NCBI GenBank assembly: GCA_902574205.1 | Contig: CACGMS010000001.1 | Span: 41,819 to 105,818 of the forward strand | Direction of reading: 5' to 3' | Source: an uncultured Candidatus Hydrogenedens sp. | Lineage (GTDB): Bacteria; Myxococcota; UBA4151 | DNA length: 64,000 nt | Shown here: piece by piece, positions 15,591-35,240 of the stretch | Numbering within the stretch: position 1 is the stretch's first letter | Layout of the letters: every line of letters starts with the position of its first letter | Notes under the pieces: model-generated | What the model was told of the DNA's origin: nothing | The model's input: the letters and a program-made list of their open reading frames with translations, nothing else | The model's database searches: none | Program-made: the position numbers and the translations under genes

Positions 15591-18188
15591 ATGGGTCCTC
15601 GGCTTCTCATTCTCATGGCTTGGATTGCATCATGCAGTCCCAGCTTGCCCACGATACAAGCCGATGAAGCGCGTTGCGGCGATGCCGTGGTGGACACCAA
15701 CGAAGCCTGCGACGACGGCAACGAGGACAATACGGATTCATGTACAGACCGTTGCGAGTTTGCAGCGTGTGGCGATGGTTATGTGCAGAGGGATGAACGC
15801 TGCGATGACGGGAACTTTAACGATCGAGATGGCTGCACTAATGTGTGCGAACCGGCGCGTTGCGGCGACGCGATCTGGCGGCAGGACCTCAACGCTGAGG
15901 CTGAAGGCTTTGAAGCCTGCGATGATGGGAATCTCGAAGAAAGCGACGGCTGCACGACCTTGTGCGCCCCACCACGCTGCGGCGACGGCATCACCCAAAC
16001 CGATGAGGCCTGCGATGATGGCAACACCATCGACAGCGACGCGTGTCGCAACACCTGCGTTGCTGCCACCTGTGGTGATTCCGTCACTCGGGCCGATGTG
16101 GTCGAGGGTGAAGACGGTTACGAGGCTTGCGACGGCGGCGAGAATTGCAGCGAAGATTGTCGTTTGGTGCTTTGCGGAAACGGCATCGCCGAGCCTGGTG
16201 AAGCCTGCGATGACGGCAATACCATCGACACCGACGCCTGCATCGCTTGCGCGTTAGCGCGCTGCGGCGATGGGCACCTTTATGAGGGCGCGGAGGCCTG
16301 TGACGATGGCAACCTAGATCCGGGCGACTCCTGCAGCGTCGATTGCCGAATCGACGACCATGGCAACACGTTCGACACCGCCACCCCGCTTGCCCTGGTC
16401 AATGGCACCAGCCGCGGCGTGTTCACACCCATCGTCAACGCTCAGATTAACCCGAGCGACGACATCGACCTCTTCGTTTTGACTGCGCCCAGCACGGGGG
16501 TCTATCGCTTCACCACGACGCGCCCTGTAGACGATCCCAGAGGCGACCCGGTTTGCCGCGTGTTCGACGCAGCCTTCAATCTTGCAGGGTTCATGGACGA
16601 TCTTTCTCTGGCTCAGACCCCCAATGATCTGCCCAGCAACTTCGATTGTTCTGTGGAATTGCGTCTGCAGGAAGGACAGCGCGGCTTCTTTGAAGTCGGC
16701 TCCTTTGGCTCGCGCAACGTTGCCTACAACGTTGAAGTGCAAACGCCCTGCGGCAATGGCGTGCTCGATCCGGGCGAGGAATGCGATCCTCAATCGCCGC
16801 AATACAATCCTTTTCGCTGCCGCACGGATTGCCGACTTAGACGCTTGATTTCCCTCGCCGGGAGCACGGGTTGTGCGGTGGTTGATGGCGCCGTTAAGTG
16901 TTGGGGCAGTAATTCAAGTTATTTGCTTGGCGAGAACCCTGAGCGTCACATCACGTGCGCCAAAGACGGGCACGACAGGACGGGGCGGCGATTAGGTAGC
17001 TACAATGTCGATGTGGTCCGATTTCCCGTTGAAGTGATTCCTGCGTCCGAGCGGGTCAAGGACCTCACAAGCTCGGGTCTCGAACAGGTCTGTGCGCTTT
17101 CCGGTGTGACCAATCTGCCACTGTGCTGGGGGCGTCTTCTGGTGGAGAATCTCGGCGGTGGTAGTATATCCGAGGAGGGCCTGAGGCAGTGTCAAGATGA
17201 TGAGCCGCCGCGATGGGAGGGCATCATCCGAGGTGCCTGTCACCCGGAGCCTGTCGTTATGGGTGACTTATACCACAACATCGACTGGGAAGAATCAAGC
17301 GTCCTGGATCGACTGATCGGCATCACGGTGGGCACGAACTCTAAGTGCTTAATCAGCCGGGGCGGTCACGTCTATTGTTCGGGCTATATGCGCTTTGGTT
17401 TGCAAGGCGACCAAATAAGCATGGAGCGACAGATCGCCTCCCAATCGGACTACAACCATTGGCCAGCTCCGTCCTTAGCACGTGAAGCGGTCATGCCCGC
17501 GAACGAAATGGCTGAATATGTTGCGCTTGGGGAATGGTCGGCCTGTGCCCTCCTGGGCGCCAGTCAGCGCCTGGCCTGTTGGGGGAAGAATAACTATGGT
17601 CAAACGGGCTCGGGACGCAGCACCACCGTAGAGGGATGCGAGGGTGTCCCTTGCGAGCCCACCCCGGTCTTGGTCGATGGCGATCTCGGTGAAGTGGTGA
17701 GCTTGAGCGTCGGCCAAAGCCATGGTTGCGCCGTCAATGGTGTGGGTCACGCCTTTTGTTGGGGTTTGAATGCCCACGGTCAAACGGGTAGTCCTTCTGA
17801 CGAGTCCGCGTGCGATGACCTCGGTTGTGTGCGTCGTCCGACTCGGGTTGCAGGCCTTGAGGGCGTGATCGATATCGTCGCGGGTACGCGCCATAGTTGC
17901 GCCCTGACGCAGAACGGCGGTGTCTGGTGTTGGGGCGACAACGCGCTCGGTCAGCTGGGCATGGGGGTACTCGGGGGTGAAGGGCGTGGTCAGCCGGATT
18001 TCCGCGTGGAACCGGTCCGGGTTGGACGCTTAGGCCGTATGGTGGGTTTGGCGGCGGGGCCTGAAAGCAACTGTGCTCGTGCCGCTGACGGCAACATCTT
18101 TTGTTGGGGCGCCAACGGCACGGGACAATTGGGCACCGGTGAATGCACCGAAGCGGAACCCTTTCCCCTTGCCGTCGACCTTCGGTAA
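15591..18188 (+). CDS. Cys-rich repeat / PPC-like / RCC1 beta-propeller lipoprotein (tandem paralog A)
   Basis: The lipobox is IASC. About 7 CGDG/CDDGN units are followed by DDHGNTFDTATPLAL...DIDLFVL, which looks like a pre-peptidase C-terminal domain. A degenerate unit [14 protein letters not shown] follows. The C-terminus has ~7 RCC1-type blades (CWGSN, CWGKNNYGQTGSG, CWGLNAHGQTG, CWGDNALGQLG, CWGANGTGQLG). Confidence 0.88.
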   Translation: MGPRLLILMAWIASCSPSLPTIQADEARCGDAVVDTNEACDDGNEDNTDSCTDRCEFAACGDGYVQRDERCDDGNFNDRDGCTNVCEPARCGDAIWRQDLNAEAEGFEACDDGNLEESDGCTTLCAPPRCGDGITQTDEACDDGNTIDSDACRNTCVAATCGDSVTRADVVEGEDGYEACDGGENCSEDCRLVLCGNGIAEPGEACDDGNTIDTDACIACALARCGDGHLYEGAEACDDGNLDPGDSCSVDCRIDDHGNTFDTATPLALVNGTSRGVFTPIVNAQINPSDDIDLFVLTAPSTGVYRFTTTRPVDDPRGDPVCRVFDAAFNLAGFMDDLSLAQTPNDLPSNFDCSVELRLQEGQRGFFEVGSFGSRNVAYNVEVQTPCGNGVLDPGEECDPQSPQYNPFRCRTDCRLRRLISLAGSTGCAVVDGAVKCWGSNSSYLLGENPERHITCAKDGHDRTGRRLGSYNVDVVRFPVEVIPASERVKDLTSSGLEQVCALSGVTNLPLCWGRLLVENLGGGSISEEGLRQCQDDEPPRWEGIIRGACHPEPVVMGDLYHNIDWEESSVLDRLIGITVGTNSKCLISRGGHVYCSGYMRFGLQGDQISMERQIASQSDYNHWPAPSLAREAVMPANEMAEYVALGEWSACALLGASQRLACWGKNNYGQTGSGRSTTVEGCEGVPCEPTPVLVDGDLGEVVSLSVGQSHGCAVNGVGHAFCWGLNAHGQTGSPSDESACDDLGCVRRPTRVAGLEGVIDIVAGTRHSCALTQNGGVWCWGDNALGQLGMGVLGGEGRGQPDFRVEPVRVGRLGRMVGLAAGPESNCARAADGNIFCWGANGTGQLGTGECTEAEPFPLAVDLR

Positions 18189-18191
18189 ACG

Positions 18192-20840
18192 ATGATGAAG
18201 CCAAAATTGTATGCCGCTCTAATTCGGTCCCTGTTGGCGCTCGGTTTCAGCGCCTGCCTAATGCCGCTGCCCGAGTTGGCAGAAGCCTCTGCGTTTTGTG
18301 GCGATGGCGTGGTGCAGGATGCGGAACGCTGCGATGACGGCAATACGGACAACAGCGACACCTGCACTGAGGCGTGTCTACCCGCCCGATGCGGCGATGG
18401 GTACGTGCAGGCCGACGAAGCCTGCGATGATGGCAATTTTGTGGATCAGGACAGCTGCACCGCCGCCTGTACCCCCGCACGCTGCGGAGACGGTATAAGG
18501 CGCCAGGATCAACCCGGCGACGCCGAGGATTACGAGCATTGCGACGACGGTAATCAAAACGAAAATGATGCGTGTACGAGCTTGTGCGCGCCGCCGCGCT
18601 GCGGCGATGGAATTGTTCAAAACAACGAAGCTTGTGACGACGGTAATACCATCGAAACGGACGCTTGCCGCTCGAACTGTGACGCCGCCCGGTGTGGTGA
18701 TGGGATCATCCATGAGGGGGTGGAGGCTTGTGACGGCGGTGAGGAATGCAGCGAAGCTTGCACTGCCTTAATATGCGGAAATGGTGTCGTCGAACCTGGG
18801 GAAGGTTGCGACGATGGCAACGAGGAGGTGAGCGACGCCTGTGTGGGCTGTCGTCTCGCCCGATGCGGCGATGGTGTCCTTCACGAAGGGGTGGAAGGCT
18901 GCGACGACGGCAACCTTGAGCCGGGTGATGCGTGCAGCGTTGATTGCCGTTTGGATGACCACGGTGATACCTTGAACACCGCAACAACTCTGGTGCTCAA
19001 TCGGGGCACCAATCGTGGCGTGTATCGGCCCATCGACACGGCTCGAATTGCCGATGTCGACGATGTGGATGTCTTTGCGTTAGTGGCACCTGCCCCCGGT
19101 GTTTATGGCTTTCGGGCGCAGCGCAATGGCGCCGCACAAAGCCCCGACCCGCAGTGCCGAGCCATCAACGCCCAAGGCACCTTAGTTGGTTTTAGCGACA
19201 ACCTGGACGATACCAATCTCGATTGTGCGGTGGAGTTGATGCTCGAGGCTGGCGAAACCGGCTATTTCAAAGTCAGCAACGCCGGGGTTGAACCGGTGAA
19301 CTATGCAGTCCTCGTTCAGGCACCCTGCGGTAACAGTGTCGTCGACCCAGGTGAGGAGTGCGATCCGAATGAGCCGGGCTCCAATGGGTTTCGTTGTCGC
19401 GCTGATTGTCGACTTCGACGTCTCTTGAGCTTGGTCGGAAGCACGGGGTGCGCGGCGCTTGACGGCGCCGTCAAGTGTTGGGGCAGCAACGCCGGTTTGC
19501 TGATGGGTCGAAGCATGGAGGCGCGCGGTGTGATTCAATGCAGCAAACAAGGTTACGATGCTGGAGGCGTCGAAACGCAAATTTTTGATGTCAACGTGGC
19601 GCGTTTTCCGGTGACCGTGATCCCGGAGACGGAACGTGTCAAAGACCTGAGCGGCGGTTGGAATGAGAGTCTTTGCGCCTTGTCTGGCGTGTCGAACATG
19701 CCTTTATGTTGGGGGCGACTCTACAAAGAAACGTCCCACGCATGGAGCGTTCATCTCGACCAGATGGGGCAGTGCCAAGATGATCGACCGCGCCAGCATG
19801 TCGATTATACGGTAGGTGCTTGTGTTCCGGAACCCACGATCATGGGTGACGTCAGTGTCAATGGACCCAATTGGGCGAGTTTGCCGGGTAATTGGCGTCC
19901 CTTTGCTTTCGACAACCTCGTGGGCTTGAGCGTGGGTACACGCGCTCGTTGCGTGCTGATGAAGGACGACTCAGGGGAAGAGACCCAAGTCTATTGTTGG
20001 GGCTATTTCAGTTCTGGGCTGCTGGGAACGCAAGGCATCTTGCGTGGCTGTGATCCTGCTATCTTAGCGCACTACAACATACCGACCTGTGATGTTGCGC
20101 GCATCGCCTTCCCGCAACCTCAGCAACGCCATCGCACCGTGATGCCGAACCAAGAATCCGCAGAATACCTGGCTATGGGTACGGAAACCGCATGTGCGGT
20201 TTTGACCGACAGCCAACGCATCGCTTGTTGGGGTCGCAACGACTACGGACAAACAGGGTCTGAGCGTGCCCTGAATCCCAGCCATCTCTGTATGGGTAAA
20301 CCGTGCGAACCGCTTCCTTTTCTTCAGCCCACGGATTTCGGCGATGTGCTCACCATCAGTTTGGGCGCCCAGCACGGCTGCGCAGTGACCTACGCTGGAC
20401 ATATCTACTGCTGGGGGCTTAATGCGAACCAACAAACGGGAGTGCCCTCCGATGCCGCCCTTTGCTTTGGGCAACCCTGCGTGCGTCGACCGACACGCGT
20501 CGGTCAGCACGAACAGATGATGGATGTTGCTGCGGGAGCGCGCCATACCTGCGCCCTGAACAAGCAGGGCGACGTATGGTGTTGGGGCAACAACAGCGCC
20601 GGGCAATTGGGCATGGGCGTCACCGGTGGCATGCGCTACGGCCAATCCCACGACCAACTCCTTGCTGTGCGCGTGGGGCGTTTGGAGCCCGTTGTTGGGC
20701 TGACGGCTGGCGTTGATTCAAACTGTACACGAACTGCCGAGGGGCGGATCTTTTGCTGGGGCGCCAACGCCACCGGTCAACTGGGCACCGGAGCGTGCAC
20801 CGAAGCCGAAGCTTTGCCGGTCGAAGTGCATCTCCAATAA
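18192..20840 (+). CDS. Cys-rich repeat / PPC-like / RCC1 beta-propeller lipoprotein (tandem paralog B)
   Basis: It starts 3 nt after the TAA of paralog A. The lipobox is GFSAC. The architecture is collinear with 15591..18188 ([75 protein letters not shown]). Confidence 0.88.
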
Positions 20841-21089: not shown

Positions 21090-23822
21090 ATGCGCACGTT
21101 CAGGGGGTTCTCGGTCTTGGTGCTGGTTTTGAATATGTCCTGCGGCGAGCAGGTGGCAGTTAGCGAGACGCAAGCGAACTGCGGCAACGGCAGCGTCGAA
21201 ATCGATGAGGCTTGCGATGATGGCAATACGGATAATTCCGATGCGTGCAGCAATGCTTGCGAACTCGCCGTATGTGGTGATGCGGTGACGCGCATGGACC
21301 TCGCTGTTGGCGAAGAAGGGCATGAGGGCTGCGATGACGGCAACGAGATCGATACCGACGGATGCACGACACTGTGCACCGTGGCTCGCTGTGGCGATGG
21401 TTATGTGCGCGCCGATGCATCTGAGGGCAGCGACGATTTTGAAGCCTGTGACGATGGCAATCGAGTGGATACCGATGGCTGCCGCAACGAGTGCCAGGTT
21501 GCTTATTGCGGCGATGGAGTAGTCCGAGATGATTTAGCACTCGATGAAGAAGGCTACGAAGCCTGCGACGACGGTAACGAAATTGAGACCGATCAATGTT
21601 TGAGTGATTGTGCCGTTGCACGCTGCGGTGATGGCGTTGTTGGACCGGGTGAGAGTTGTGATGATGGCAACGATGACCCAACAGATTCTTGCCGCGCCTG
21701 TCAGTTGGCGACTTGCGGTGATGGTGTGATTCAAGAAGGCGAAGTGTGCGATGATGGTAATGCCATCGAAAGTGACGCGTGTTTGAGCACTTGCGCACCG
21801 GCAGCATGCGGCGATGGTGTCGTGTATGAAGGCGTGGAAGACTGCGATGATGGCAACGCGCAGACCACCGATGCGTGCACCAGTGCCTGTCGATTGGCGC
21901 GTTGCGGCGACGGTATTCGGCGCTTAGATTTAGAGCCAGAAGACGATGGTTTTGAAGCCTGCGATGATGGCAACAACGAGGTCGGTGATGGATGTTCGGA
22001 GGTCTGCGCCTTGGAGCGCTGCGGAAATGGTCGCATCGATGCTGGAGAAGCCTGCGATGATGGCAACGCCGTGGATACTGACGGCTGCACGTCTGCTTGT
22101 TTACAGGCGCGTTGCGGCGATGGAATTCGCTATCTAGGCACCGAAGAGTGCGATGACGGCAATCAAGTCGAGACCGATGCGTGTTTGAACAATTGCCTCG
22201 ATGCGCGATGCGGCGACAATGTGGTGCGCCAGGGCGTGGAGGCTTGCGATGATGGCAACCTTGATGCTGGGGATGGCTGCAATGGTGTCTGTCAGACCGA
22301 AGGTTGCGGTAATGGTCGGCTCGATCCCGGGGAAGCCTGCGATGACTCCAACGCACAAGCTGGTGATGGATGCGATGACCAATGTCGACTCGAAATTTGC
22401 GGTAACGGGCGGGTTGATGCCGGCGAAGCCTGTGATGACGGAAACCGTATTGAGACCGATGCCTGCACCAGCGGTTGTTTAGCAGCTCGATGCGGTGATG
22501 GAATTCGTCGGAATGATCTGCAGCCACAGGATCCCGGTTACGAGGTGTGCGATGATGGCAACCAAGTCGATGATGATGCGTGCCGTAACACCTGCGAGAC
22601 CCTTCGCTGCGGCGATGGTGTCGTTGCTCAAGGTATTGAGTCTTGTGACGACGGTAACGCCGATGATTTGGATGCCTGTCGTAATGATTGCACGGTCGCA
22701 CGGTGCGGCGATGGCGTGACGCGTAACGATCTCAATGACGGTCAAGCCGGTTATGAAGTGTGCGATGATGGTAATGCGGAGCAAACAGACAGCTGTTTAA
22801 ATGATTGCTCGTTGGCGTCGTGCGGCGATGGTTTAGTACGCGCCGGAATCGAGGATTGTGATGACGGGAACAATGATCAAAGCGATGCTTGCCTCAATGA
22901 GTGCAGCATGGCGTCGTGCGGCGATGGCGTAACGCGTAACGATCTCAATGAGGGTCAAGCCGACTATGAAGCGTGCGATGACGGCAATATTGAGCAAACA
23001 GACAGCTGCTTAAATGATTGCTCGTTGGCGTCGTGCGGCGACAGCCTTATCCGAGAGGGAGTTGAGGGATGCGACGATGGGAACGCCGATTCGTGGGATG
23101 GGTGCTCGGCGCAATGCCAATTAGAAGGCGGCACTCAGCAGTCGCCGGCGCAAAGTTGTGCAGCGATTTTAGCCGCTCAACCGGGTATCGAGAGTGGTCC
23201 AGCTTGGATTGATCATGATGCAGCAGGCGGTGATTCGGCGATTTATGTGTATTGCGATCAAACGACGGAGCAAGGGGGATGGCTCGATATCGTGCGTACT
23301 TTCCATTTGCAGGGCATCGATCAAAACGCTTACCTGAGTCACTTCTTCTTGGCGAACAACGGTCAAGCGCTAGCAGCCGTCGTGGATTCGAACAATGCGG
23401 GACCGGGTTTAGGCATTCGCAATATGACCGCGAGTTATGACCACACAGAAGGTTTTCATTTGGTAAGTATGGTTCCCTTTTCTAAGGTCCGTACCAATTA
23501 CCGCATGCAAGGCACCGATCAGAACTACCGCTGCAATCACTCCAACTGGGTTCCGCTCAATGGACCCGGCTATGATGGGGGATACGACGGTTACCAAAGC
23601 GCATGTCCGAATGGTAAAACCTGTATTCAAGGTCGCTGCACGTATCTCCGAGACGCGCCGATCTCGGCGAGTTATTCGAACGATAACATCAATTCGGAAA
23701 CGACCTATCTGACGTGGAGCGGCAGTGGCGTGGGGACACAGACCTCAACCGGCTGTGCCCGCGATAATCTCATTCCATTTAACCGCCCAGTGACCTGGTT
23801 CACTCAGTTGCTTATTCGCTAG
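21090..23822 (+). CDS. Cys-rich repeat lipoprotein (19 units) with a C-terminal fibrinogen-like YCDxxxxGGW domain
   Basis: GGAGG lies 7 nt upstream of the ATG. The signal plus lipobox is [19 protein letters not shown] counted 19 CDDGN units. The C-terminal ~225 aa begin [47 protein letters not shown], which resembles fibrinogen C-domain subdomain A. Confidence 0.9.
22704..23041 (+). repeat. Near-identical ~125-bp duplication: 22704-22828 and 22917-23041 (offset 213 bp), including a 32-nt exact run
   Basis: [42 protein letters not shown] aligns with [42 protein letters not shown]. The exact run is ttaaatgattgctcgttggcgtcgtgcggcga. Confidence 0.9.
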
Positions 23823-23924
23823 GTGCCCATCTGTTGATGTGGCCGCCAACGCGTACCTATAGATGGGTTTGAGGGGCTTGTCGCTCGCTTCAAAATAGCG
23901 TCAAGTAATTAGGCGAAGGGGACG

Positions 23925-24677
23925 TTGGTGCAGATGCGCTTACTGGTTGTTTTGGTTGTTTTGGTTACCGGTCCAGCGTTGGCAAGTGACCAGCCTGGTC
24001 TCGCCGCATTGAACATCAAGGCTGAACGAGGCGTGGATGCGAGTTTGGCGACACTCATCAGTGAAGCGATTCTGAGTGAACTCAAGGCGAGCGGTCGCTT
24101 TGCTTCGGTTATCGGCAGTTCCGATATGCAAACGATGATCGATATGGAGCAGCAAAAGCAGGCTTTGGGCTGCGACGAGAACACCTGTTTGGCTCAACTC
24201 GGTGGTGCGCTTGGAGTCCCTTATTTACTCAGTGGAAGTTTGGGATCGGTGGGTGGGCAATTTATGCTCAATCTGAAGATCATTCAGGTCGAAGAATCTC
24301 GCGTCGCAGAGCGAAAAACGCATATTTTTGATTCGGAAAAAGCGCTCGTCCGAGGGCTGGAATCGGTTTTGACGGGTTTAGTTTCAGGAGCTTTGAATTC
24401 GGCTGACGGCCAAGCCGAGTCGGTAAAGCAGGTCAGGGTGATGTCGCAGAGTAAAAGACTCGGTCCCTGGGTTGGCGGTGGATTGGCGACGATCGGCACA
24501 GGGTTGGCACTCGGCGGGTATCTCTCTGCACAAGCAGCACAGTCTGATTATGATGCATCGCCAACGGTGGCTCGTAGCCGAGACCTTCAAAGTGCAGTCT
24601 CTTCGGGAAATACGATGATCAGTATTGGCCTTGGATCCGTGGGTGCAGGTATCGCTGCTTTGGTGTGGTTACGATGA
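23925..24677 (+). CDS. Membrane-anchored protein carrying the GC-x4-C / ALGVPYLL module (uncharacterised, CsgG/LpoB/TolB-N-like by pattern only)
   Basis: The signal peptide is MRLLVVLVVLVTGPALA. The module is LISEAILSELKASGRFASVIGSSDMQTMIDMEQQKQALGCDENTCLAQLGGALGVPYLLSGSLGSVGGQFMLNLKIIQVEESRV. The C-terminus has two hydrophobic segments flanking AQSDYD. The start is uncertain among TTG 23925, GTG 23928 and ATG 23934. Confidence 0.8.
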   Translation: MVQMRLLVVLVVLVTGPALASDQPGLAALNIKAERGVDASLATLISEAILSELKASGRFASVIGSSDMQTMIDMEQQKQALGCDENTCLAQLGGALGVPYLLSGSLGSVGGQFMLNLKIIQVEESRVAERKTHIFDSEKALVRGLESVLTGLVSGALNSADGQAESVKQVRVMSQSKRLGPWVGGGLATIGTGLALGGYLSAQAAQSDYDASPTVARSRDLQSAVSSGNTMISIGLGSVGAGIAALVWLR

Positions 24678-25555
24678 AGAGACTGTATGCAGTTGCATGT
24701 GTTCTGGTTGCCTGCGTCGATGCCGATTACAGTGCCGGTGGTCTGCTCGACGAATGTCCGAAAAATAACAACGAGTGCACCGCAGGTTACCAATGCGAAA
24801 ATGGATACTGTACGCCAGAGTCAGAGATGCGAGCCGATAGTGGTGTCGTCACTGATGCTGGCTTCAATGATAGTGGACCCATAATGGATGATGCAGGTCC
24901 GAGTATCCCTCGTGATTGTCAGGCAATCAAAGCCGCTAACCTGGCTGCTGGGAATGGAACCTACACGATTGATCCTGATGGTCCGGGTGGTGAGTCAAGT
25001 CTCCAGGCACTTTGCGATATGACGACTGCCGGTGGGGGTTGGACGCGTGTGATCAATATACGAAACGGTGCAATCACTTGGAATGCATGGAGCGAACGTG
25101 TTGATGTCGAAAACAGCGCTTCGAGTTGGCAGCAAACAACGACTGGACTTGGCATTTCTCGGTTTTCGGACACCCCGGACGGTGAGGACCTCGAATACCT
25201 ATTTTTTGTCGAGAATAGACAAAGAGGAAGCCTCTACAGAGGCGTCAATAAGGGTGCATGGGATCCACGCCTCGGCTCTGAAGAATTTGATGCCTCTTTC
25301 GAGATCCGATCTCTGGATGACACGGATTGGCTGATTTGCGACCAAGCCTTGAACCACGCGCAGGACGACTGGAATTGGTCAATTGCGAGTGATCCGGCAG
25401 GTTCCTGTAACCGGATAGGTGGTGGTGATGCATTTCTACTTCGTGGTGGCGATGAGCACGGTGCCGAAGCAGCTGAACGTTTGTACGGTCTGACGGAATT
25501 TTTTGGGGCTTCACGCTGGATCGCTGTGAGTGTTTACGTGCGGCGAACGCCTTAG
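24674..25555 (+). CDS. Lipoprotein with a fibrinogen-like CDMTTAGGGWT domain
   Basis: The ATG at 24674 overlaps the upstream TGA (24675-24677) as ATGA. The lipobox is MKRLYAVACVLVAC. RDCQAIKAANLAAGNGTYTIDPDGPGGESSLQALCDMTTAGGGWTRV closely matches the ficolin/angiopoietin N-terminal FReD pattern. Confidence 0.85.
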   Translation: MKRLYAVACVLVACVDADYSAGGLLDECPKNNNECTAGYQCENGYCTPESEMRADSGVVTDAGFNDSGPIMDDAGPSIPRDCQAIKAANLAAGNGTYTIDPDGPGGESSLQALCDMTTAGGGWTRVINIRNGAITWNAWSERVDVENSASSWQQTTTGLGISRFSDTPDGEDLEYLFFVENRQRGSLYRGVNKGAWDPRLGSEEFDASFEIRSLDDTDWLICDQALNHAQDDWNWSIASDPAGSCNRIGGGDAFLLRGGDEHGAEAAERLYGLTEFFGASRWIAVSVYVRRTP

Positions 25556-25559
25556 TGGA

Positions 25560-25856
25560 TTAGTTTTTCCCTGATTTCTGCCGACAATCCTTTTGCATCT
25601 TTTTATCTTTGATCGCGCCGCAATAAGAAGGCTTTTTGCGCACAACCGCTAAGCAATAATTACGTTTGTCGGCGTCTTTGATCAGACCGCAAACGGACAT
25701 GCTACGCTCGCATATTCCGCGGCATAGATTGCGGTCATCGACATCTTTTATCTTTGTGCATTCAGAGCACTTATTCGTTGATTTAGCTTCTGCTTGAGTA
25801 GGCATCATGAGGAATAAGCCGAGGCCAAGCGAGGCATAAAGAAGAAGCGTTCTCAT
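25560..25856 (-). CDS. Small secreted Cys/Lys-rich protein with three C-x-x-IKD-x-D-x-R/K-N/D-x-C repeats
   Basis: 98 aa. The signal peptide is MRTLLLYASLGLGLFLMMPTQAEA. The repeats are CTKIKDVDDRNLC, CGLIKDADKRNYC and CGAIKDKKMQKDC. GGAGA lies upstream of the ATG. Confidence 0.65.
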   Translation of the reverse strand: MRTLLLYASLGLGLFLMMPTQAEAKSTNKCSECTKIKDVDDRNLCRGICERSMSVCGLIKDADKRNYCLAVVRKKPSYCGAIKDKKMQKDCRQKSGKN

Positions 25857-25872
25857 GTTGGGTCTCCGATTC

Positions 25873-25895
25873 AGACTACCTTAAAATCGTAGTCT
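25873..25895 (-). other. Inverted repeat (7-bp stem agactac/gtagtct, 9-nt loop) between the GT4 stop and the small-protein RBS
   Basis: Read directly: agactac (25873-25879), loop cttaaaatc, gtagtct (25889-25895). No U-tract follows, so its role as attenuator, processing site or nothing is unknown. Confidence 0.25.
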
Positions 25896-25934
25896 CGTGT
25901 TGTTCAGACGCTAATGGCGGCACAATTCGTCACT

Positions 25935-27074
25935 CTAGTTGGTTCGTCTCTGGAGGATTTTATCAAAGATTGCGATGATGCGGTCGCTGCTGGCGGCCCA
26001 GTTGAAGCGATCCATGACCAACTTTCTCGCTTTGCGCTTACGCGGTTCGTGACTGTTGGGGTCGTTTAAAAGTTCAAGCATTTTGCGTTTAAGGTCAGCG
26101 ACTGAGTTGGGCGCAAAGAGAGTGCCGATGTCTGGTGTGAGGTAGGTGGGGACGTTACCCACGGGAGTCGATAGTGGAATCACGCCACAAGCCATGGCTT
26201 CCCGAATCGCTAGGGGCGCGCATTCGCTCAAGGACGGTAGCACGTAGGCGTCCATGGCCGGGTAAAAATCTTCAGGTGTCATGGTCGAAGGAATCCATGA
26301 GATGCGACGGTCTTCTTTGTCGTGACGAAGAACCGAACGATTGCCCCCCACCATTAAGAGATGGGTCTTTGGGTGACTGAGTTGAGTGAAGGCATCAATG
26401 AGCACTTGAAGATTCTTTTCTGCGCCAAAGCGCCCGAGATAACCAAAGAGAAAGGCGTCTTCGGGTATGTTCAGCGCCTCACGTGTTCTGTTGCGCTCGC
26501 TCGCTGGTCGGGGACGAAAACGGTTGGTGTCGATACCGAGCGGTGTCACGCTAATTGGCGAGCTGAACCCGTGAGCCTCAAGGATCTCTTTGGTGGCTTG
26601 ACTTGGGGTCACAATCTGCTGTGCCTTGTGGTAGCGTTGACGGCAGGTCTTGAGCCAAAAGTTACGGAAATGTGCCTGGCCGATGGGCAGATTTTGGGCG
26701 TAGATTTCCCACTCGATTGAGTGAATCATTGAGACGATTGGGACTGCCTCGCTGTGCGCAATGCTCACCGCCGTATTCCCAAGTGGACCGATGCTGTGCG
26801 TCCAAACTAAGTCCACATGGGCTAAGGCTCTTTGCATGAATCTTTTGGATACTAGGGGTAGTCCTGCACCCTCGATACGGACCCATGGCAGCATGGGGAA
26901 GAGGTGGTAGCGAACCCCATGGAATTGTGGTCGTTCGCCGGCATAACGCGGAGCAATCAGTTCAAAGTTATAGGCGTGCGTCATTCGAGGAATCAGTTCA
27001 ATGATCGCACGAGCAAGACCATCCCAGCGAGGTAAGAACGAGTCCGCAACAATGGCGATGGTCGGCTTAGTCAT
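25935..27074 (-). CDS. Glycosyltransferase family 4 (GT-B, RfaG-like)
   Basis: The N-terminus IAIVADSFLPRWDGLARA and the C-terminus PSLSECAPLAIREAMACGVIPLSTPVGNVP (E-x7-E-type region) are typical of GT4. Confidence 0.85.
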   Translation of the reverse strand: MTKPTIAIVADSFLPRWDGLARAIIELIPRMTHAYNFELIAPRYAGERPQFHGVRYHLFPMLPWVRIEGAGLPLVSKRFMQRALAHVDLVWTHSIGPLGNTAVSIAHSEAVPIVSMIHSIEWEIYAQNLPIGQAHFRNFWLKTCRQRYHKAQQIVTPSQATKEILEAHGFSSPISVTPLGIDTNRFRPRPASERNRTREALNIPEDAFLFGYLGRFGAEKNLQVLIDAFTQLSHPKTHLLMVGGNRSVLRHDKEDRRISWIPSTMTPEDFYPAMDAYVLPSLSECAPLAIREAMACGVIPLSTPVGNVPTYLTPDIGTLFAPNSVADLKRKMLELLNDPNSHEPRKRKARKLVMDRFNWAASSDRIIAIFDKILQRRTN

Positions 27075-27336
27075 AACGAGTAGCTTGATTGTTGCACACC
27101 AAACACTGTCTGCGTTTGACTCATGGCGTCAACGGTCTGGATGGTCGTTAGTCGTCTCAAGTGCAGTCTCTTGCTCAGGCGTGCGAGCGAGGTATTTGTG
27201 GGTATTCAGGTTGGAGTCTTGTCTGCTGCGACTTAATCACCAGTCCGATCTTTAGGGTCGATTGGTCGTGATCAACCCTCCTCAATCGAATACCATTTTG
27301 ATCAAGTTGATATCGGGTCATCTCCGTCGTCGGTAC

Positions 27337-27348
27337 TCTCGACATTTT
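27337..27348 (+). promoter_or_regulatory. Conserved 12-mer tctcgacatttt, 43 nt upstream of the start of 27391..29880 (copy 2 of 2)
   Basis: It is identical to 21037-21048 and sits at the same distance from a paralogous start codon. Confidence 0.25.
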
Positions 27349-27390
27349 GACGTGATCTAGGCAATTTAATCCCCGAATAGGGAGACCGGT

Positions 27391-29880
27391 ATGCGACCCT
27401 CGGCGACTAGAACGACTCTTTTGGTGATCAGCATGTGTGGGTCGATGGCTTGCGGTGAGCAGGTGGTCGTTCGCGAGACTGAGGCACGATGTGGTAATGG
27501 GCAAATCGATGCGGACGAGCAATGCGACGATGGCAATACACGCAACGAGGATGGCTGCACTGCGGCCTGTGTTGTCGCCGTCTGCGGTGATGGGGTTATC
27601 CGAACCGATTTAGGCCCTGATGACGTCGCCTTTGAAGGTTGTGACGACGGAAATTCAGCCGACGATGACGGGTGCACGAGCGCTTGTGTGCTCGCGGTCT
27701 GTGGGGACGGGATTGTTCGCACTGATATTGAGGCTGGCGCGCCCGGCTATGAAGCCTGTGATGACGCGAATGCGAGCGATCATGACGGCTGTTTGACCGG
27801 CTGTGTGTCAGCGAGCTGCGGTGATGGGGTCCGTCGTGAGGACTTAGCCGAAGATGACCTTGGTTACGAAGCTTGTGATGACGGCAACGAAGACGATACG
27901 GACGCCTGCCTCACCACGTGCTTAGAAGCGCGCTGCGGCGATGGGGTCGTCGGTCCTGGCGAGGGCTGTGATGATGCCAATGAGGACCCTACAGATGAGT
28001 GCAACGCGTGCCAACCGGCTGGCTGCGGCGACGGTGCGGTGCAAGACGGCGAGCAATGCGATGATGGGAACGCCATTGATACCGATGCCTGCTTGAGCAC
28101 GTGCGCAACTGCTCGTTGCGGTGATGGTGTAGTTTGGCAGGGCGAAGAAGTATGTGATGACGGTAACGCCAACGCCCAAGATGCGTGTACATTGCAATGC
28201 CAAGAGGCGGTTTGTGGCGATGGTATCCGTCGTCTCGATGTGCAGCCTGAAGACCCGAATTTTGAAGAGTGTGATGATGCCAATGCTGAACTGGGCGACG
28301 GCTGTTCGGATCGGTGTTTGACCGAACGTTGTGGCAATGGTCGTCTCGATCATGGCGAGGCCTGCGATGACGGAAACCAGGCGAACACCGATGCGTGCAC
28401 GAATGCGTGTGAATCGGCTCGTTGCGGCGATGGGGTAAGACACATCGGTCAAGAGGGCTGCGATGATGGTAACGCCGAAGTGGGCGATGGTTGCGATGCA
28501 CAGTGTCGGCTTGAAGGTTGTGGAAATAGTCGCCTAGATCCTGGCGAGGCGTGTGACGATGGGAACCGTGAGGCGGGTGACGGGTGCAACTTAGCTTGTC
28601 AGGTTGAGGTGTGCGGTAACGGTCGACGAGACCTTGGCGAAGCCTGCGACGATGGCAATCAGGTCGATACGGATGCTTGCTTGAGTGATTGTGTGCTCGC
28701 TCGTTGCGGTGATGGTCAACGCTTTGAAGCACAAGAAGCTTGTGACGACGGAAACCCATTCAATCAGGACCATTGTACGAATGATTGTCTAATCGCTCGA
28801 TGCGGCGACGGAATTACGCGCAATGATCTGGCTCAGGATGCTGAGGGTTATGAGGCTTGCGATGACGGCAACCAAGACCTTGGAGATGGATGCGATAACC
28901 AGTGTCGCCTTGAGGTGTGCGGGAACGGTCGACTCGATGAAGGTGAAGACTGTGACGATGGCAACCGTATTGAGACTGACGCATGCACCAGTGGTTGCTT
29001 TACGGCTCGCTGTGGGGACGGCATTCGACGACAGGACTTGGACCAAGGACAAGAAGGTTATGAAGCCTGCGATGACGGGAATCAGGAGCAAACCGATGGC
29101 TGCATCAACGATTGCGTGGCTGCGCGGTGCGGTGACGGACAAGTGCAGGTGGGTGTTGAGGGCTGCGATGATGGAAACCAGATCCCCAACGATGGTTGCG
29201 CAAACGATTGCACGCTGGGGCCTGATGGAAGCTCACCAGCGCAAGCGAGCACGACGTGTAAGGTGCTCAAATCAGAGTTCCCTCAGCTGCCGTCAGATGC
29301 TTATTGGCTCGATCCCGACGGCGCCGGTGGCGATGATCCGTTTCAAGCCTATTGCGACATGACGACCGACGGTGGCGGGTGGACGTACTGCTACACCACG
29401 AGTCGCTACGTGCATCTTTCAAGTCGTAACAGCGGCGGTACCTTTGGACAGGACGGCTACCAAGCGAATTGTCGAAAAGTGCCGTTTCACGAAGTGATTT
29501 ATCTGCGACACAGTGACGATGCCAATGCGATGTTCCGGAGGAACAACGGACAGGATGCGACCATCGAAACGCTCGGGTTTAATGTGGCGGGTAACGTGCT
29601 CGGGCAATGGACTGGGCGCGGGGCGGCATCACCCAATTGGTCTTATCAACTCAACATCTGCGACAATACGTGGATGCAGGTCGGTTTGATGATGACGGGC
29701 ATAACGAACAATTGCGCCAAACAATGCAACAACTGGTGCGGCGATACCTCGAGTCCTTATTATCGAACGAACGGTGAAGGGAACGGTGTTGCAAACTATA
29801 ATGCTTATCACGGCGTCGCTTTCGCACAGAACGGTCACCGCAACCTTGACCATCAACAGATGAGCGTGGGAATCCGCTAA
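27391..29880 (+). CDS. Cys-rich repeat lipoprotein (17 units) with a C-terminal fibrinogen-like YCDMTTDGGGWT domain
   Basis: The lipobox is MCGSMAC. The N-terminal ~330 aa are collinear with 21090..23822. The C-terminus begins TCKVLKSEFPQLPSDAYWLDPDGAGGDDPFQAYCDMTTDGGGWTY. Confidence 0.9.
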   Translation: MRPSATRTTLLVISMCGSMACGEQVVVRETEARCGNGQIDADEQCDDGNTRNEDGCTAACVVAVCGDGVIRTDLGPDDVAFEGCDDGNSADDDGCTSACVLAVCGDGIVRTDIEAGAPGYEACDDANASDHDGCLTGCVSASCGDGVRREDLAEDDLGYEACDDGNEDDTDACLTTCLEARCGDGVVGPGEGCDDANEDPTDECNACQPAGCGDGAVQDGEQCDDGNAIDTDACLSTCATARCGDGVVWQGEEVCDDGNANAQDACTLQCQEAVCGDGIRRLDVQPEDPNFEECDDANAELGDGCSDRCLTERCGNGRLDHGEACDDGNQANTDACTNACESARCGDGVRHIGQEGCDDGNAEVGDGCDAQCRLEGCGNSRLDPGEACDDGNREAGDGCNLACQVEVCGNGRRDLGEACDDGNQVDTDACLSDCVLARCGDGQRFEAQEACDDGNPFNQDHCTNDCLIARCGDGITRNDLAQDAEGYEACDDGNQDLGDGCDNQCRLEVCGNGRLDEGEDCDDGNRIETDACTSGCFTARCGDGIRRQDLDQGQEGYEACDDGNQEQTDGCINDCVAARCGDGQVQVGVEGCDDGNQIPNDGCANDCTLGPDGSSPAQASTTCKVLKSEFPQLPSDAYWLDPDGAGGDDPFQAYCDMTTDGGGWTYCYTTSRYVHLSSRNSGGTFGQDGYQANCRKVPFHEVIYLRHSDDANAMFRRNNGQDATIETLGFNVAGNVLGQWTGRGAASPNWSYQLNICDNTWMQVGLMMTGITNNCAKQCNNWCGDTSSPYYRTNGEGNGVANYNAYHGVAFAQNGHRNLDHQQMSVGIR

Positions 29881-32999: not shown

Positions 33000-35240
33000 T
33001 CATCGCCGCTCAACCAAGACCCGATCGACTCTCATGTAGCTGATATCATGCCAGTAGAGACGGGTCTCGAGTCGATGCCCTTCTCTTCCTTGGTTATTAA
33101 AATTAATATTAAAGTCTTGGTAGGTAAACGGTGCGTTGAAGTCTGAGCGACGAATGTTCTCTATGGCGAAAATCTCACCCGTATCGGCGTCAAAGAGGTC
33201 CATGGTGGCGACGATCTCCGGACGGTCGTTCACGACATCGATCATGATTCGATACGATGCAGAGAGCTCACCGACCGACCAATCCTGAGCATAGGGCCCA
33301 TAAATTAGATGACCCTCTTGATCAGGCTCGACGGAGGCGGACCAGCCATCTTCTTCGGCGCGACCGAGACCGTGCTGCAAATCGCGCTCAGCCTCGTAGA
33401 GCCATTCAAAAGCGATGGGCTGTTGCGCGTCATGATGGATCGTTAATCGCCTCCGAGCCAGCGGGCTCTGTGTCCCGCTCGCCACTCCGCTGTGGATCAG
33501 CCCGCCGCCCATCTCGATACCGCCATGAACCACGCACAGGCAAAAGCCGCTGTCGTCATTATCGCCCGGTCCAAAGTTGCCGAGCGTAAAGGATCGACCG
33601 TTGGCGTAGGTATTGAAGTTACTCAGTGAAACCGGCTGCCCAGCCCAGCCCAAAACCACGTCATGGTTTGGTACATCGTCCGGGAGGCGCGTCCATTGAC
33701 CGGGCGTCAAGTTGATGCGCCGGCCTGACCAATTGACGCCGACCTCTCGCTCGGTGACGCGGACGTAGCGATTCAAGCGCTTGAGCGGGTGAGCGGCTGG
33801 CCACTCGGTCATCACAAAGCCGCCAATAAAGCTGTAGGGTCCATCAAAGGTAGGATTGTCTTGCGGGTTACGCACCTGAACGAGTCGATCCACATCATGG
33901 CTGGTAGCGTCGAGTTCGTAGCCCACGCGCAGGTAGACCGGTCGTCGAACGCCATCATCGAATAAGTAGTCCTCGTGACAATTGCGTCCGGTGGAGCTCC
34001 CTCCAAAATCACCCTGCTTGGTGAGTCGACCTTCATAGACAATCCGTAGTGTGGTCTCGGTTGAGCTGACTTCGATCGGTTCAAAGCGCTGACTCCAGCC
34101 TGGTGAGCCTTCATTGCAAGCGCTCCAGGTCGGGATATCGGGGTCGGTATAGTGGGGGGCTTCAGCGAGACTGTATTGCGCACAAAAGGAGTTCTCGTCG
34201 GCGCAACTTGGGTTGTCATCTTCTTCAGGGACGGCGTTGGGGAACTCGATGTGTTCGGCGCCTTTATAGCCAGCAGGCCAGCGCCCTTGTCCGCGCTCGC
34301 CGACGACGAGGGCGTTGACCGGACGGTTGCCATCGAGCAGAACGAAGTCAAGGGATTCAAGGTTGCCATTGAGCGCCCAGAGCCCATTCATTTTCCCATA
34401 AAAACCGGTCTCATCGAGCCACGCCATGTACCAGCGACCGACAAAGACCCGGTCCTGGCTATTCGGTCCTGTTTGGTCATCGAGACCGAGCCCCTCAAGA
34501 GCGCGTCGAATCAGCCCATCAACGTGATCTGGCGGTGCGCCAGAGTAGTCATGGATTCGAGGTAAACCCTCGATGATGCGGGTGGGTAGCAAGTTGGCGA
34601 GACAGGAATTGCTGCACGCATCGTCATCCACCTGGTTGCCGTCGTCGCATTGTTCGACGCCGGCGTGGATGAGACCGTCTCCGCACCGGGCGAGGACGCA
34701 GCCGCTCAAGCAATCGTCGGTGTCGACGCTGTTCCCATCGTCGCAGGCTTCAAATCCGTCGTCAGTCGCGCCGAGGTCGGCTCGTACCACGCCGTCACCG
34801 CATATCGCTGGTGCACAATCATTACGGCATGCGTCTGCATCGTCTCGATTGCCGTCGTCACAGTGTTCGAAATCGCTGTCGCCCTCGGAGCGGTCGAGAC
34901 GGACAATGCCATCACCGCAACGGCTGGTTGTGCATCGATTAGAACATCCGTCCGTCTCGCGGGTATTGCCATCGTCACAAGCCTCAAACTCTTCGCTGTC
35001 TGGTGCTTGATCGATACGCGTCACTCCGTCACCGCATCGAGCCCGTTCGCAAGCGTTGGTACAACGATCGGTATTGTCGGCGTTGGCGTCGTCGCATGCT
35101 TCACCGGTCTCGAGTGTTCCGTTCCCGCACGAGGCTTCTCGGTCACGGATGATGACTTGTTCTGAGCAAGCCGATATCATCCACGAAGTGATGAATAGAG
35201 CGATCAAAAAGAAGGGTCGTTGCACGATATCTCCAGCCAC
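33000..35240 (-). CDS. Cys-rich repeat lipoprotein (5 units) with a ~530-aa orphan C-terminal domain
   Basis: It has a GTG start and the lipobox MISAC. The post-lipobox SEQVIIRDREASCGNG parallels 21090 and 27391. After the 5 CDDGN units I recognised no family. Confidence 0.85.
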   Translation of the reverse strand: MAGDIVQRPFFLIALFITSWMISACSEQVIIRDREASCGNGTLETGEACDDANADNTDRCTNACERARCGDGVTRIDQAPDSEEFEACDDGNTRETDGCSNRCTTSRCGDGIVRLDRSEGDSDFEHCDDGNRDDADACRNDCAPAICGDGVVRADLGATDDGFEACDDGNSVDTDDCLSGCVLARCGDGLIHAGVEQCDDGNQVDDDACSNSCLANLLPTRIIEGLPRIHDYSGAPPDHVDGLIRRALEGLGLDDQTGPNSQDRVFVGRWYMAWLDETGFYGKMNGLWALNGNLESLDFVLLDGNRPVNALVVGERGQGRWPAGYKGAEHIEFPNAVPEEDDNPSCADENSFCAQYSLAEAPHYTDPDIPTWSACNEGSPGWSQRFEPIEVSSTETTLRIVYEGRLTKQGDFGGSSTGRNCHEDYLFDDGVRRPVYLRVGYELDATSHDVDRLVQVRNPQDNPTFDGPYSFIGGFVMTEWPAAHPLKRLNRYVRVTEREVGVNWSGRRINLTPGQWTRLPDDVPNHDVVLGWAGQPVSLSNFNTYANGRSFTLGNFGPGDNDDSGFCLCVVHGGIEMGGGLIHSGVASGTQSPLARRRLTIHHDAQQPIAFEWLYEAERDLQHGLGRAEEDGWSASVEPDQEGHLIYGPYAQDWSVGELSASYRIMIDVVNDRPEIVATMDLFDADTGEIFAIENIRRSDFNAPFTYQDFNINFNNQGREGHRLETRLYWHDISYMRVDRVLVERR

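Follow-up and report, generated by a model that had tools for sequence, protein, structure and literature searches.

Three distinct fibrinogen-like head families in neighboring genes of a Myxococcota-like bacterium, two of them carried on paralogous cysteine-rich stalks

Three neighboring genes in the window, by which we mean the whole 64-kb stretch of DNA analyzed, are real genes for exported proteins of a Myxococcota-like bacterium, an affiliation suggested by the relatives and the repeat type. The proteins are probably lipid-anchored and would display lectin-like or adhesin-type binding heads at the cell surface, a reading to which we assign a probability of about 0.6. The C-terminus of each protein (P1, P2, and P3) is a disulfide-containing module of ~220 aa, consisting of a FReD subdomain A, a family-specific body, and a hydrophobic strand with an arginine. 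These modules fall into three families within the bacterial "GGGWT" branch, itself part of the fibrinogen/intelectin/collagen-NC1 superfamily. We infer surface display and any binding activity, and the arrangement proposed here is one in which an N-terminal lipid anchor would keep the protein at the cell surface, a disulfide-bonded stalk would serve as a rigid spacer, and the distal head would use a site within its conserved C-terminal third to bind a ligand outside the cell. That ligand would most likely be a glycan, or else some other polymer on the surface of prey, kin, or substrate. P2 differs in layout, being a short predicted lipoprotein with a head alone.

The genes and their parts are listed in Table 1. 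An earlier note on this DNA had described three ORFs with a fibrinogen-like motif starting at about 23154, 24911, and 29250; the ORFs are present as described, and these positions were right to within one or two codons. P2, which is identical to a 293-aa database protein (P0001), has an alternative in-frame GTG start at 24665. The heads contain between 4 and 8 cysteines each. Antisense ORFs over the stalk regions (e.g., 21160..22701 and 27989..28759) translate into His/Arg-rich sequence and appear to be a side effect of codon structure in the repeats. A glycosyltransferase gene neighbors the locus.

Table 1. Positions of the three head-bearing genes, their parts, and neighboring stalk genes in the window
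Feature	Position	Strand	Description
Two tandem stalk genes	15591..18188, 18192..20840	+	Cys-rich stalk, 6 repeats each; RCC1 beta-propeller head
P1 gene, 910 aa	21090..23822	+	Signal peptide, 19 acidic Cys-rich repeats, C-terminal type-1 fibrinogen-like head
P1 signal peptide	21090..21143	+	Ends at Cys18 (…VLNMSC); lipobox atypical, Asn at -3
P1 stalk	21144..23114	+	19 CDDGN-type repeats, spacing 30-39 residues
Head 1, 235 aa	23115..23819	+	Last residues …LLIR, the protein C-terminus
Head 1 subdomain A	~23115..23294	+	Followed by ~175 family-specific aa
P2 gene, 293 aa from ATG	24674..25555	+	Lipoprotein signal, short Cys-knot segment, linker, type-2 head; without stalk
Head 2, 226 aa	24875..25552	+	Motif CDMTTAGGGW; last residues …VYVRRTP
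P3 gene, 829 aa	27391..29880	+	Lipoprotein signal, 17 acidic Cys-rich repeats, C-terminal type-3 fibrinogen-like head
P3 stalk	27454..29214	+	17 repeats; spacing pattern matches P1
Head 3, 221 aa	29215..29877	+	Motif CDMTTDGGGW; last residues …SVGIR
Lipobox and stalk protein	33000..35240	-	5 repeats; 548-aa C-terminal region without family match

A six-frame regular-expression scan of the whole 64-kb window for CD(M/Q)TTxxGGW confirmed the motif sites and returned exactly three of them (23253..23282, 25013..25042, and 29353..29382), each with a cysteine 32 residues upstream; Cys15 and Cys47 are found in every head. The P1 motif is a variant form, which still follows the pattern of a cysteine, ~32 residues, and then (Y/L)CDxxxxGG(G)W. 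The earlier note had read this pattern as the hallmark of FReD subdomain A and had proposed searches with the NCBIfam GGGWT and Pfam fibrinogen models, and the hallmark proved to be genuine. The NCBIfam model NF040941 (GGGWT_bact), whose 46 positions cover subdomain A alone, gave 45.6 bits for P1, 60.6 for P2, and 60.5 for P3 (E-values of 5e-12, 1e-16, and 1e-16), all above its curated whole-protein cut-off of 30 bits, with matches spanning residues 689-731 of P1 and 622-665 of P3, while Pfam profiles matched in P2 and P3. The Pfam model Fibrinogen_C (PF00147) itself gave a divided answer, recognizing P2 with 26 bits against a threshold of 22, with the match limited to profile positions 1-61 of 221, and yielding no match at E≤0.1 in P1 and P3. 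In Pfam and PDB-sequence comparisons, neither the proteins nor their family profiles aligned with FReD subdomains B and P past ~position 60, and the region of the FReD Ca2+ site and second Cys pair was left unaligned in all profile searches of the three heads. Every match in a Pfam scan of ten family members, animal ones included, also ended at ~position 60, as did the matches of ten other database proteins flagged PF00147, with the exception of P0071. The remaining ~165-175 residues of each head matched no Pfam or NCBIfam family.

Judged by sequence comparison, the three ~220-aa heads are three separate, individually conserved families that are homologous to one another only over the first ~55 residues, the FReD subdomain A. 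Alignment of the three family profiles with hhalign matched residues ~6-61 at a probability of 99% and nothing beyond, and the same profiles matched FReD, intelectin, and COLFI chains among PDB sequences over the subdomain A stretch only. The earlier remark that, past GGGW, the heads diverge both among themselves and from the canonical FReDs was thus upheld, both kinds of comparison stopping at ~residue 61. A word-index homology search for head 1 was empty, but exhaustive phmmer found 461 relatives at E≤1e-3 (~30-40 of them full-length, at 35-52% identity), and head 1 is therefore not an orphan. Head 2 has only four full-length relatives (P0002-P0005, 54-89% identity) among the 5.8 billion proteins searched, and a GTDB species scan located relatives of head 3 in 17 bacterial MAG loci, none above 59% identity and most of them titled Myxococcota or Myxococcales. 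NCBI names for the relatives include [quoted passage not shown] and "fibrinogen-related protein [Bradymonadia bacterium]". In the head 1 and head 3 families, conservation is highest in the C-terminal third, where a P subdomain would lie, and in the CDM..GGGW motif, and strictly conserved polar residues cluster in this third; the variable parts are the subdomain A start and the middle. Conserved residues of head 3 include W174, D177, Y182, R184, N206, H208, and N210. Type-1 and type-3 heads occupy the C-terminus of proteins whose N-terminal portions differ widely, sometimes with several heads per protein. Most type-3 heads in the scanned bacterial MAG loci are not on TIGR02232 stalks, and the stalk is therefore not essential to the head. 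Flp_Fap scores of 12.9 bits (P0028) and 27.6 bits (P0071), both below the 32.2-bit cut-off, give a hint of pilin-mounted type-3 heads.

The AlphaFold model of head 3 covered the whole ~220-aa module with a pLDDT of 88.2 and a pTM of 0.89. Comparing predicted structures with Foldseek had also been proposed in the earlier note, and for head 3, the head compared in this way, the 50 PDB matches listed were FReDs and intelectins only, including fibrinogen beta, XEEL, human intelectin-1, L- and H-ficolin, angiopoietin-2, tenascin, and FIBCD1. E-values started at 5.5e-6, with 92 matches at E≤1e-3, TM scores of 0.4-0.52, and rmsd values of ~8 Å. A TM of ~0.5 and an rmsd of ~8 Å indicate that the general fold is shared and heavily remodeled; head 3 is therefore predicted to have a FReD/intelectin-like fold in such a remodeled form. 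The model of head 2, built from a nine-row alignment, reached a pLDDT of 38, was unusable, and was left out of all comparisons. Heads 1 and 2 may share the FReD-like fold. Against the viral structures of BFVD, the best matches of head 3 were cyanophage proteins (S-ShM2, P-HM2, P-SSM4, and S-CAM8; E 4e-6 to 2e-3, TMq 0.44-0.50), whose names refer to a fibrinogen C-terminus, to collagen NC1, or, in one case, to a "phage tail fiber-like protein", and which place the fold on fiber-like microbial proteins. Identity to head 3 was 10-16%, with predicted structures compared on both sides, and these matches suggest that the fold may also serve in tail-fiber-like proteins.

Our NCBIfam scan assigned the stalks of P1 and P3 to TIGR02232 (myxo_disulf_rpt) above the cut-off, with 340.9 bits over 18 stretches in P1 and 324.7 bits over 17 stretches in P3; P1 additionally scored 235.9 bits with DUF4215. 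Neither repeat family was detected in P2 in the Pfam and NCBIfam scans. The two stalks share 60% identity over 606 residues with equal repeat spacing; they are paralogous, but the entire head, including subdomain A, has been exchanged. Anchoring was assessed with our own version of a PS51257-style lipobox expression, in which an uncharged h-region is followed by [LIVMFWSTAG](2)-[LIVMFYSTAGCQ]-[AGS]-C near the N-terminus. This expression matched P2 (LVAC, Cys14, or Cys17 when counted from the GTG start), P3 (GSMAC, Cys21), and several neighboring proteins. P1 deviated by the one residue given in Table 1, and its Cys18 aligns with the lipobox Cys of P3; with the lipobox of P1 being atypical, the proteins may be released instead of anchored. 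Counted over the window, at least seven proteins of this stalk kind carry other heads, either RCC1 propellers or regions matching no type, and P1 and P3 lie within this island.

The earlier note had pictured divergent ligand-binding heads with variable specificity regions, and in its full form this account would make the heads recently diversified copies of one another with hypervariable loops on a constant framework, for which the snail FREPs offer an analogue. Three heads within 9 kb with a very similar subdomain A would suit it. However, profile-profile similarity is absent past ~residue 60, heads 1 and 3 belong to families with their own relatives elsewhere at 35-59% identity, and head 2 has its own four, so that three distinct families are found in place of one variable head. 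The note had asked whether variability concentrates where the P subdomain would lie; instead, it is the C-terminal third that is best conserved in the families of heads 1 and 3, which contradicts this account, and we regard it as very improbable. Lower still, at a practically negligible level, stands the notion of a chance or convergent low-complexity motif in ORFs that are not real genes, which is ruled out by the profile E-values (5e-12 to 1e-17), the absence of the motif elsewhere in the window, the conserved relatives, and the confidently predicted fold of head 3.

Two further accounts accept the modules as genuine and give them a different role from the surface-displayed binding heads favored here. 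The heads might be oligomerization modules, comparable to COLFI/NC1 or to the trimer contacts of ficolins, gathering stalks to nucleate a multimeric fiber. P3 clears the COLFI (PF01410) gathering threshold with 34 against 26.2 bits, the sponge and coral relatives score higher with COLFI than with Fibrinogen_C, COLFI chains appear among the PDB sequence matches, and the first-ranked viral structure carries the name "fibrillar collagen NC1 domain-containing protein". However, the COLFI match in P3 is confined to profile positions 22-70 of 233, that is, to the shared subdomain A; P2 scores 15.8 bits, P1 has a PDB match alone (E 0.085), and a match across the whole ~233-position domain was seen in none of the three proteins. 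Moreover, the P2 head has no stalk to assemble, and heads of this kind occur on many unrelated scaffolds, at times several in one chain. This role appears unlikely; oligomerization and ligand binding can coexist. The proteins might otherwise be released effectors, toxins or enzymes, in which the family-specific C-terminal bodies would have a catalytic and not a binding role. The long stretch of each head outside any family model, the gathering of strictly conserved polar residues in the C-terminal third, and the atypical lipobox of P1 could be read in this way, yet searches of Pfam, NCBIfam, and PDB sequences returned no catalytic family or motif, the PDB structures listed for the head 3 model are all FReDs and intelectins without enzymatic function, and the lipobox is clear in two of the three proteins. 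We consider this alternative quite unlikely.

Compared with known systems, the three proteins qualify for NF040941, and their bodies of ~170 residues form three unrelated families that lack a family model. With the animal FReDs (ficolins, tachylectin-5A, angiopoietins, tenascin, and FIBCD1), the heads have in common subdomain A, its Cys pair, and the CDM..GGGWT strand, and the predicted overall fold of head 3 is alike, although the TM is only ~0.5. Canonical FReD B/P subdomains carry a Ca2+ site (DxDxD…NCA) and a GGWW…C…NLNG motif, and it is these profile positions that stay unaligned in the heads. Animal FReDs end in …MKIRP, an ending that the C-terminal hydrophobic strand and arginine of the heads resemble. 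A canonical FReD does occur in bacteria, namely P0071, which scores 136 bits and aligns with positions 4-186 of the 221 in the profile. Intelectins (ITLN1, XEEL, and a lamprey serum lectin) gave the best or near-best PDB sequence matches for heads 2 and 3 and for the family profiles, and intelectin 4wmq was among the top structural matches to head 3 (TMq 0.51, within an intelectin range of 0.45-0.51). As in these heads, the FReD-type subdomain A of intelectins is joined to a divergent body; the heads, however, are 60-80 residues shorter than intelectin domains, and the alignments to 4wmo, 4wmq, 6usc, and 7e1e, whether made with phmmer or with profiles, end at ~residue 60-75, leaving the intelectin-specific body with its Ca2+/ligand residues unmatched.

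A parallel in overall design is TraA of Myxococcus, whose lectin-like head on a Cys-rich stalk has been proposed to act as a receptor on the cell surface, rigidly supported by the stalk, and which combines a PA14 head, TIGR04201 repeats, and a MYXO-CTERM anchor (PMC3325183). Both designs hold a recognition head off the cell on a stalk of Cys-rich tandem repeats, and both come from the same phylum. The polarity is opposite, however, P1 and P3 having the presumed anchor at the N-terminus and the head at the C-terminus, and a PA14 head contrasts with the FReD-like heads described here. TraA was considered as a carrier of the P1/P3 repeat family and was ruled out; its repeats belong to TIGR04201, not TIGR02232 (PMC3325183), and TraA is therefore an analogue rather than a relative. 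Neither PA14, TIGR04201, nor MYXO-CTERM was found in P1-P3 at E≤0.1 in the Pfam and NCBIfam scans.

The head 3 family extends to intron-containing genes with animal neighbors in a sponge and a coral, the sponge relatives being named "intelectin-1-like" by NCBI. In a crude neighbor-joining tree, the sponge and coral sequences formed one clade nested among bacterial MAG sequences, at 45-58% identity. A speculative and rather doubtful interpretation is that bacterial GGGWT heads form a bacterial radiation that is old, large, and diverse in structure, not occasional animal imports, centered on Myxococcota in the one family sampled, with at least one branch, type 3, exchanged between bacteria and early-branching animals.

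The GGGWT domain type is already catalogued, and P1-P3 are additional members of it; our literature search yielded no study of what bacterial GGGWT/FReD-like domains do. Current views are so far unchanged by these members, the domain type being catalogued and its function inferred. In animal immunity, lectins built on fibrinogen-related and intelectin domains have a central part in pattern recognition, and to our knowledge their bacterial counterparts are named in databases without an assigned function or structure. Three different bacterial head types lying next to each other, two of them on one kind of stalk, provide a compact set for asking what such heads bind. They also point to a design principle in this lineage, with interchangeable heads (FReD-like, RCC1 propeller, and unassigned) on a common disulfide-rich stalk. 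The type-3 family, which is common to sponge and coral, offers a handle on how the superfamily came to be shared by bacteria and animals, and a transfer from bacteria to animals, if it took place, would bear on the origin of the FReD- and intelectin-type lectins of animals.

Three forward-strand genes within 9 kb encode proteins, here P1, P2 and P3, that each end in a fibrinogen-like module (head 1, head 2 and head 3; 235, 226 and 221 aa, respectively). Scanning the 64-kb window in all six frames with the expression C[DN]x(3-5)G(1-3)W plus preceding fibrinogen-type context located the motif with that context at only these three places, each with a cysteine 32 residues upstream; a fourth match to the expression, at 34095, lacked this context. 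All three proteins exceeded the cutoff of 30 bits for NCBIfam NF040941 (GGGWT_bact, "fibrinogen-like YCDxxxxGGGW domain"), scoring 45.6 (P1), 60.6 (P2), and 60.5 (P3) bits. P2 additionally passed Pfam Fibrinogen_C (26 versus 22 bits) at profile positions 1-61 of 221 only, and P3 passed Pfam COLFI (34 versus 26.2 bits) at positions 22-70 of 233 only. Given these positions and the NF040941 and Pfam scores, including those from the profile searches proposed in the earlier note, its observation of three fibrinogen-like motifs in 9 kb is confirmed, with the positions right and the matches far above chance. A public protein collection contained a 293-aa protein identical to P2 (P0001); P1 and P3 themselves were not among the proteins returned by searches with their heads.

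Features of the window and of the two animal loci (L020, L021) carrying relatives of head 3
Feature	Position	Strand	Details
Stalk protein	239..2494	+	17 repeats; almost nothing downstream of repeats; ORF start inside repeat
Stalk protein	3734..7564	+	28 repeats and 121-aa tail
EGF-module protein	12439..13248	+	269 aa, predicted lipoprotein
Stalk and RCC1 beta-propeller	15591..18188	+	6 repeats, middle region, C-terminal RCC1; probable lipoprotein signal
Stalk and RCC1 beta-propeller	18192..20840	+	6 repeats, middle region, C-terminal RCC1; probable lipoprotein signal
P1	21090..23822	+	long ORF, 910 aa
Head 1 motif	23253..23282	+	
Secreted protein	23925..24677	+	250 aa; stop overlaps P2 start
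P2	24674..25555	+	long ORF, 293 aa; in-frame GTG at 24665
Head 2 motif	25013..25042	+	CDMTTAGGGW
Cys-rich secreted protein	25560..25856	-	98 aa; between P2 and P3
GT4-family glycosyltransferase	25935..27074	-	between P2 and P3
P3	27391..29880	+	long ORF, 829 aa
Head 3 motif	29353..29382	+	CDMTTDGGGW
Stalk protein	33000..35240	-	lipobox, 5 repeats, 548-aa C-terminal region
LpoB/DUF3280-like	35375..36844	+	weak N-terminal match
LpoB/DUF3280-like	39282..41072	-	weak N-terminal match
Oscarella lobularis gene (P0020/P0021)	L020 4001-4896		span 896 nt for 267 aa
Orbicella faveolata gene (P0029)	L021 4001-6178		span 2178 nt for 301 aa

In P1 and P3, a signal peptide with a terminal cysteine is followed by a stalk of tandem Cys-rich acidic repeats (TIGR02232 myxo_disulf_rpt/Pfam DUF4215; 19 repeats and 341 bits in P1, 17 repeats and 325 bits in P3) and then by the head, and in P2 a short Cys-containing segment and a linker connect the signal peptide to head 2. 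The PS51257-style lipobox pattern is satisfied by P2 (…LVAC) and P3 (…GSMAC); P1 (…LNMSC) is one residue short of it, and its cysteine aligns with the lipobox cysteine of P3. We infer from these patterns that all three proteins may be lipidated. Alignment of the two stalks over 606 residues shows 60% identity and no rearrangement; P1 and P3 share a repeat spacing (39, 39, 39, 31, 30, 32, 39, …), with two additional repeats in P1, and the heads can be aligned only through subdomain A, the N-terminal ~60 residues of the fibrinogen-related domain (FReD). On this sequence evidence, P1 and P3 are paralogs that have undergone exchange of the complete head.

Both proteins sit inside an island of stalk proteins, several of which have lipoboxes by regular expression. 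The two RCC1 proteins, which are tandem paralogs, are built on the kind of stalk seen in P1 and P3 and bear another head. No Pfam or NCBIfam family matched the 548-aa C-terminal region of the reverse-strand stalk protein, and no family match was obtained for the 250-aa and 98-aa secreted proteins. The latter contains three copies of the motif C-x2-IKD-x-D/K-x-R/Q-N/K-x-C (CTKIKDVDDRNLC, CGLIKDADKRNYC, CGAIKDKKMQKDC). A 165-aa secreted protein and a weakly CHAP-like protein are encoded downstream of P3, and one of the two LpoB/DUF3280-like proteins runs on into PEGA and RCC1 repeats. The EGF-module protein, with eukaryote-type modules (cEGF, teneurin-like EGF), represents a further animal-like extracellular module in the region.

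The earlier note had described the three heads as diverging downstream of the motif, which our alignments bear out: the likeness found by MAFFT was confined to the first ~60 residues, and similarity in pairwise hhalign comparison of the three family profiles was limited to residues ~6-61, aligned at a probability of 99%. The variable specificity regions that the note inferred were not supported. As judged from these profiles, heads 1-3 are three distinct conserved families rather than variants of one type, and for heads 1 and 3 conservation across family members is as high in the C-terminal third as in the CDM..GGGW motif. Variation there falls at the start of subdomain A and in the middle of the head, the opposite of a hypervariable P-like region on a constant scaffold.

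Head 1 had appeared to be an orphan after an empty word-index search, a status ruled out by an exhaustive search that returned 461 relatives at E≤1e-3. Of these, about 30-40 align with head 1 over its full length (35-52% identity), with varied N-terminal parts and sometimes several copies per chain; the body consensus (alignment A4) reads …YRMQGxDxxYRCxxxNW(I/V)PLNGPGYNGG…CPxGxxCIQG…GRDAPI…LTWSGS…CARDxxIP…WFTxLLxR. Head 2 is rare, with four full-length relatives among 5.8 billion clustered proteins (alignment A2). Head 3 has many relatives (the type-3 family), with the body consensus …YQLxICDxxWMxVGLMMSGYxxCxKQCNxWCGDTSSxYYRTDGD…YNGVAFxENGHxN…MSVGIR (alignment A1) directly followed by the stop codon. 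When one genome per GTDB species was scanned, type-3 heads turned up in 17 loci, whose titles mostly read Myxococcota, Myxococcales, Nannocystaceae, or Deltaproteobacteria, the remainder being unclassified proteobacterial MAGs; the best match was 59% (Nannocystaceae), and the head ends large proteins of 400-3000 aa, mostly without CDDG-type repeats. A related metagenomic contig of 118 kb (ENA ERZ28548091) encodes a type-3 head sharing 70% identity with head 3, close to DUF4215, GST, and RCC1 genes; gene calls on this contig are in many short pieces, probably owing to frameshifts in a long-read assembly.

Searches with the heads and family profiles matched intelectins (XEEL, human ITLN1, lamprey serum lectin), fibrinogen beta and gamma, tenascins, MFAP4, angiopoietins, FIBCD1, ficolins, tachylectin-5A, and collagen C-propeptides, always within subdomain A; further family members, those from animals among them, gave the same picture. 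With a 22-sequence alignment, AlphaFold produced a confident model of head 3 (pLDDT 88.2, pTM 0.89). The Foldseek comparison suggested in the earlier note gave 92 PDB matches at E≤1e-3, and all 50 of the matches listed were FReDs or intelectins, among them fibrinogen beta (1re4_B, E 5.5e-6), XEEL (4wmo), ITLN1 (4wmq, TM-score 0.51), angiopoietin-2 (0.52), and L-ficolin (about 0.5), with an rmsd of about 8 Å. We read the predicted structure as the same general fold as FReDs and intelectins, strongly remodelled beyond subdomain A. The head 2 model reached a pLDDT of only 38. For heads 1 and 2, the shared start, similar length, and C-terminal hydrophobic strand with arginine (…LLIR in head 1, …VYVRR in head 2, …SVGIR in head 3) suggest a FReD-like fold past subdomain A, this ending resembling the …MKIRP end of animal FReDs. 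Among predicted viral structures (BFVD), the best matches to head 3 were cyanophage proteins (E 4e-6 to 2e-3) named fibrinogen C-terminal, collagen NC1, or "phage tail fiber-like"; the source phages were the T4-like S-ShM2, P-HM2, P-SSM4, S-CAM8, and metaG-MbCM1. A 279-aa metagenomic protein (P0071) carries a near-complete canonical FReD (136 bits; DQDHD…NCA…GWWHGNC motif) behind a Flp/Fap-pilin-like segment scoring 27.6 bits, under the cutoff of 32.2. Pilin-like N-termini also occur in the type-3 members P0028 (12.9 bits, very weak profile support) and P0032, hinting that FReD heads might be mounted on Tad/Flp-type pilins.

The type-3 family has animal members too: proteins named "intelectin-1-like" from the sponge Oscarella lobularis, and one protein from the coral Orbicella faveolata. 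These proteins have full-length heads that share 40-47% identity with head 3 and as much as 58% with other bacterial members. Their translations are not colinear with the genes, and introns are implied since the gene spans exceed the coding lengths. The introns, together with flanking genes for Sushi, aspartic protease, Sec23/24, and VWA proteins, indicate that these are animal genes; contamination was ruled out by the same features and by the Mb-scale scaffolds. In a crude neighbour-joining tree with midpoint root and without support values, the animal sequences formed one clade nested among bacterial MAG sequences, a pattern compatible with a single exchange, in either direction, between bacteria and early animals.

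The best-supported reading is that these are head-on-stalk surface proteins with binding heads. An N-terminal lipid anchor would place the protein at the surface, the disulfide-rich acidic stalk would serve as a rigid spacer, and the distal head would bind, with one kind of stalk carrying different heads. Binding rather than catalysis is favored because the head 3 model resembles exclusively lectin or receptor-binding FReDs and intelectins, the fold is apparently used in phage fibre-like proteins, the heads are terminal on many scaffolds, and Pfam and NCBIfam scans of P1-P3 matched no enzyme family. A precedent is Myxococcus TraA, a proposed surface receptor with a lectin-like head on a Cys-rich stalk (PMC3325183). 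TraA shares this design with P1 and P3 but has TIGR04201 repeats, a PA14 head, and a C-terminal anchor, and is therefore an analogue only. The main rival reading, in which the chief role of the heads is oligomerisation, as for COLFI, draws on the COLFI match of P3; it is weakly supported, since COLFI matches cover subdomain A alone.

Heads of this kind belong to a type already catalogued: given NF040941 and relatives that NCBI names "fibrinogen-like YCDxxxxGGGW domain-containing protein" or "fibrinogen-related protein", P1, P2, and P3 are added members of a functionally uncharacterised domain type, as the earlier note had stated, and our literature search turned up no study of what bacterial GGGWT/FReD-like domains do. 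The present analysis adds three separate conserved head families instead of one diversified head, the whole-head exchange between P1 and P3 on a paralogous stalk within a stalk-protein island, a type-3 family common to bacteria, a sponge, and a coral, and a remodelled FReD/intelectin-like predicted fold for head 3.
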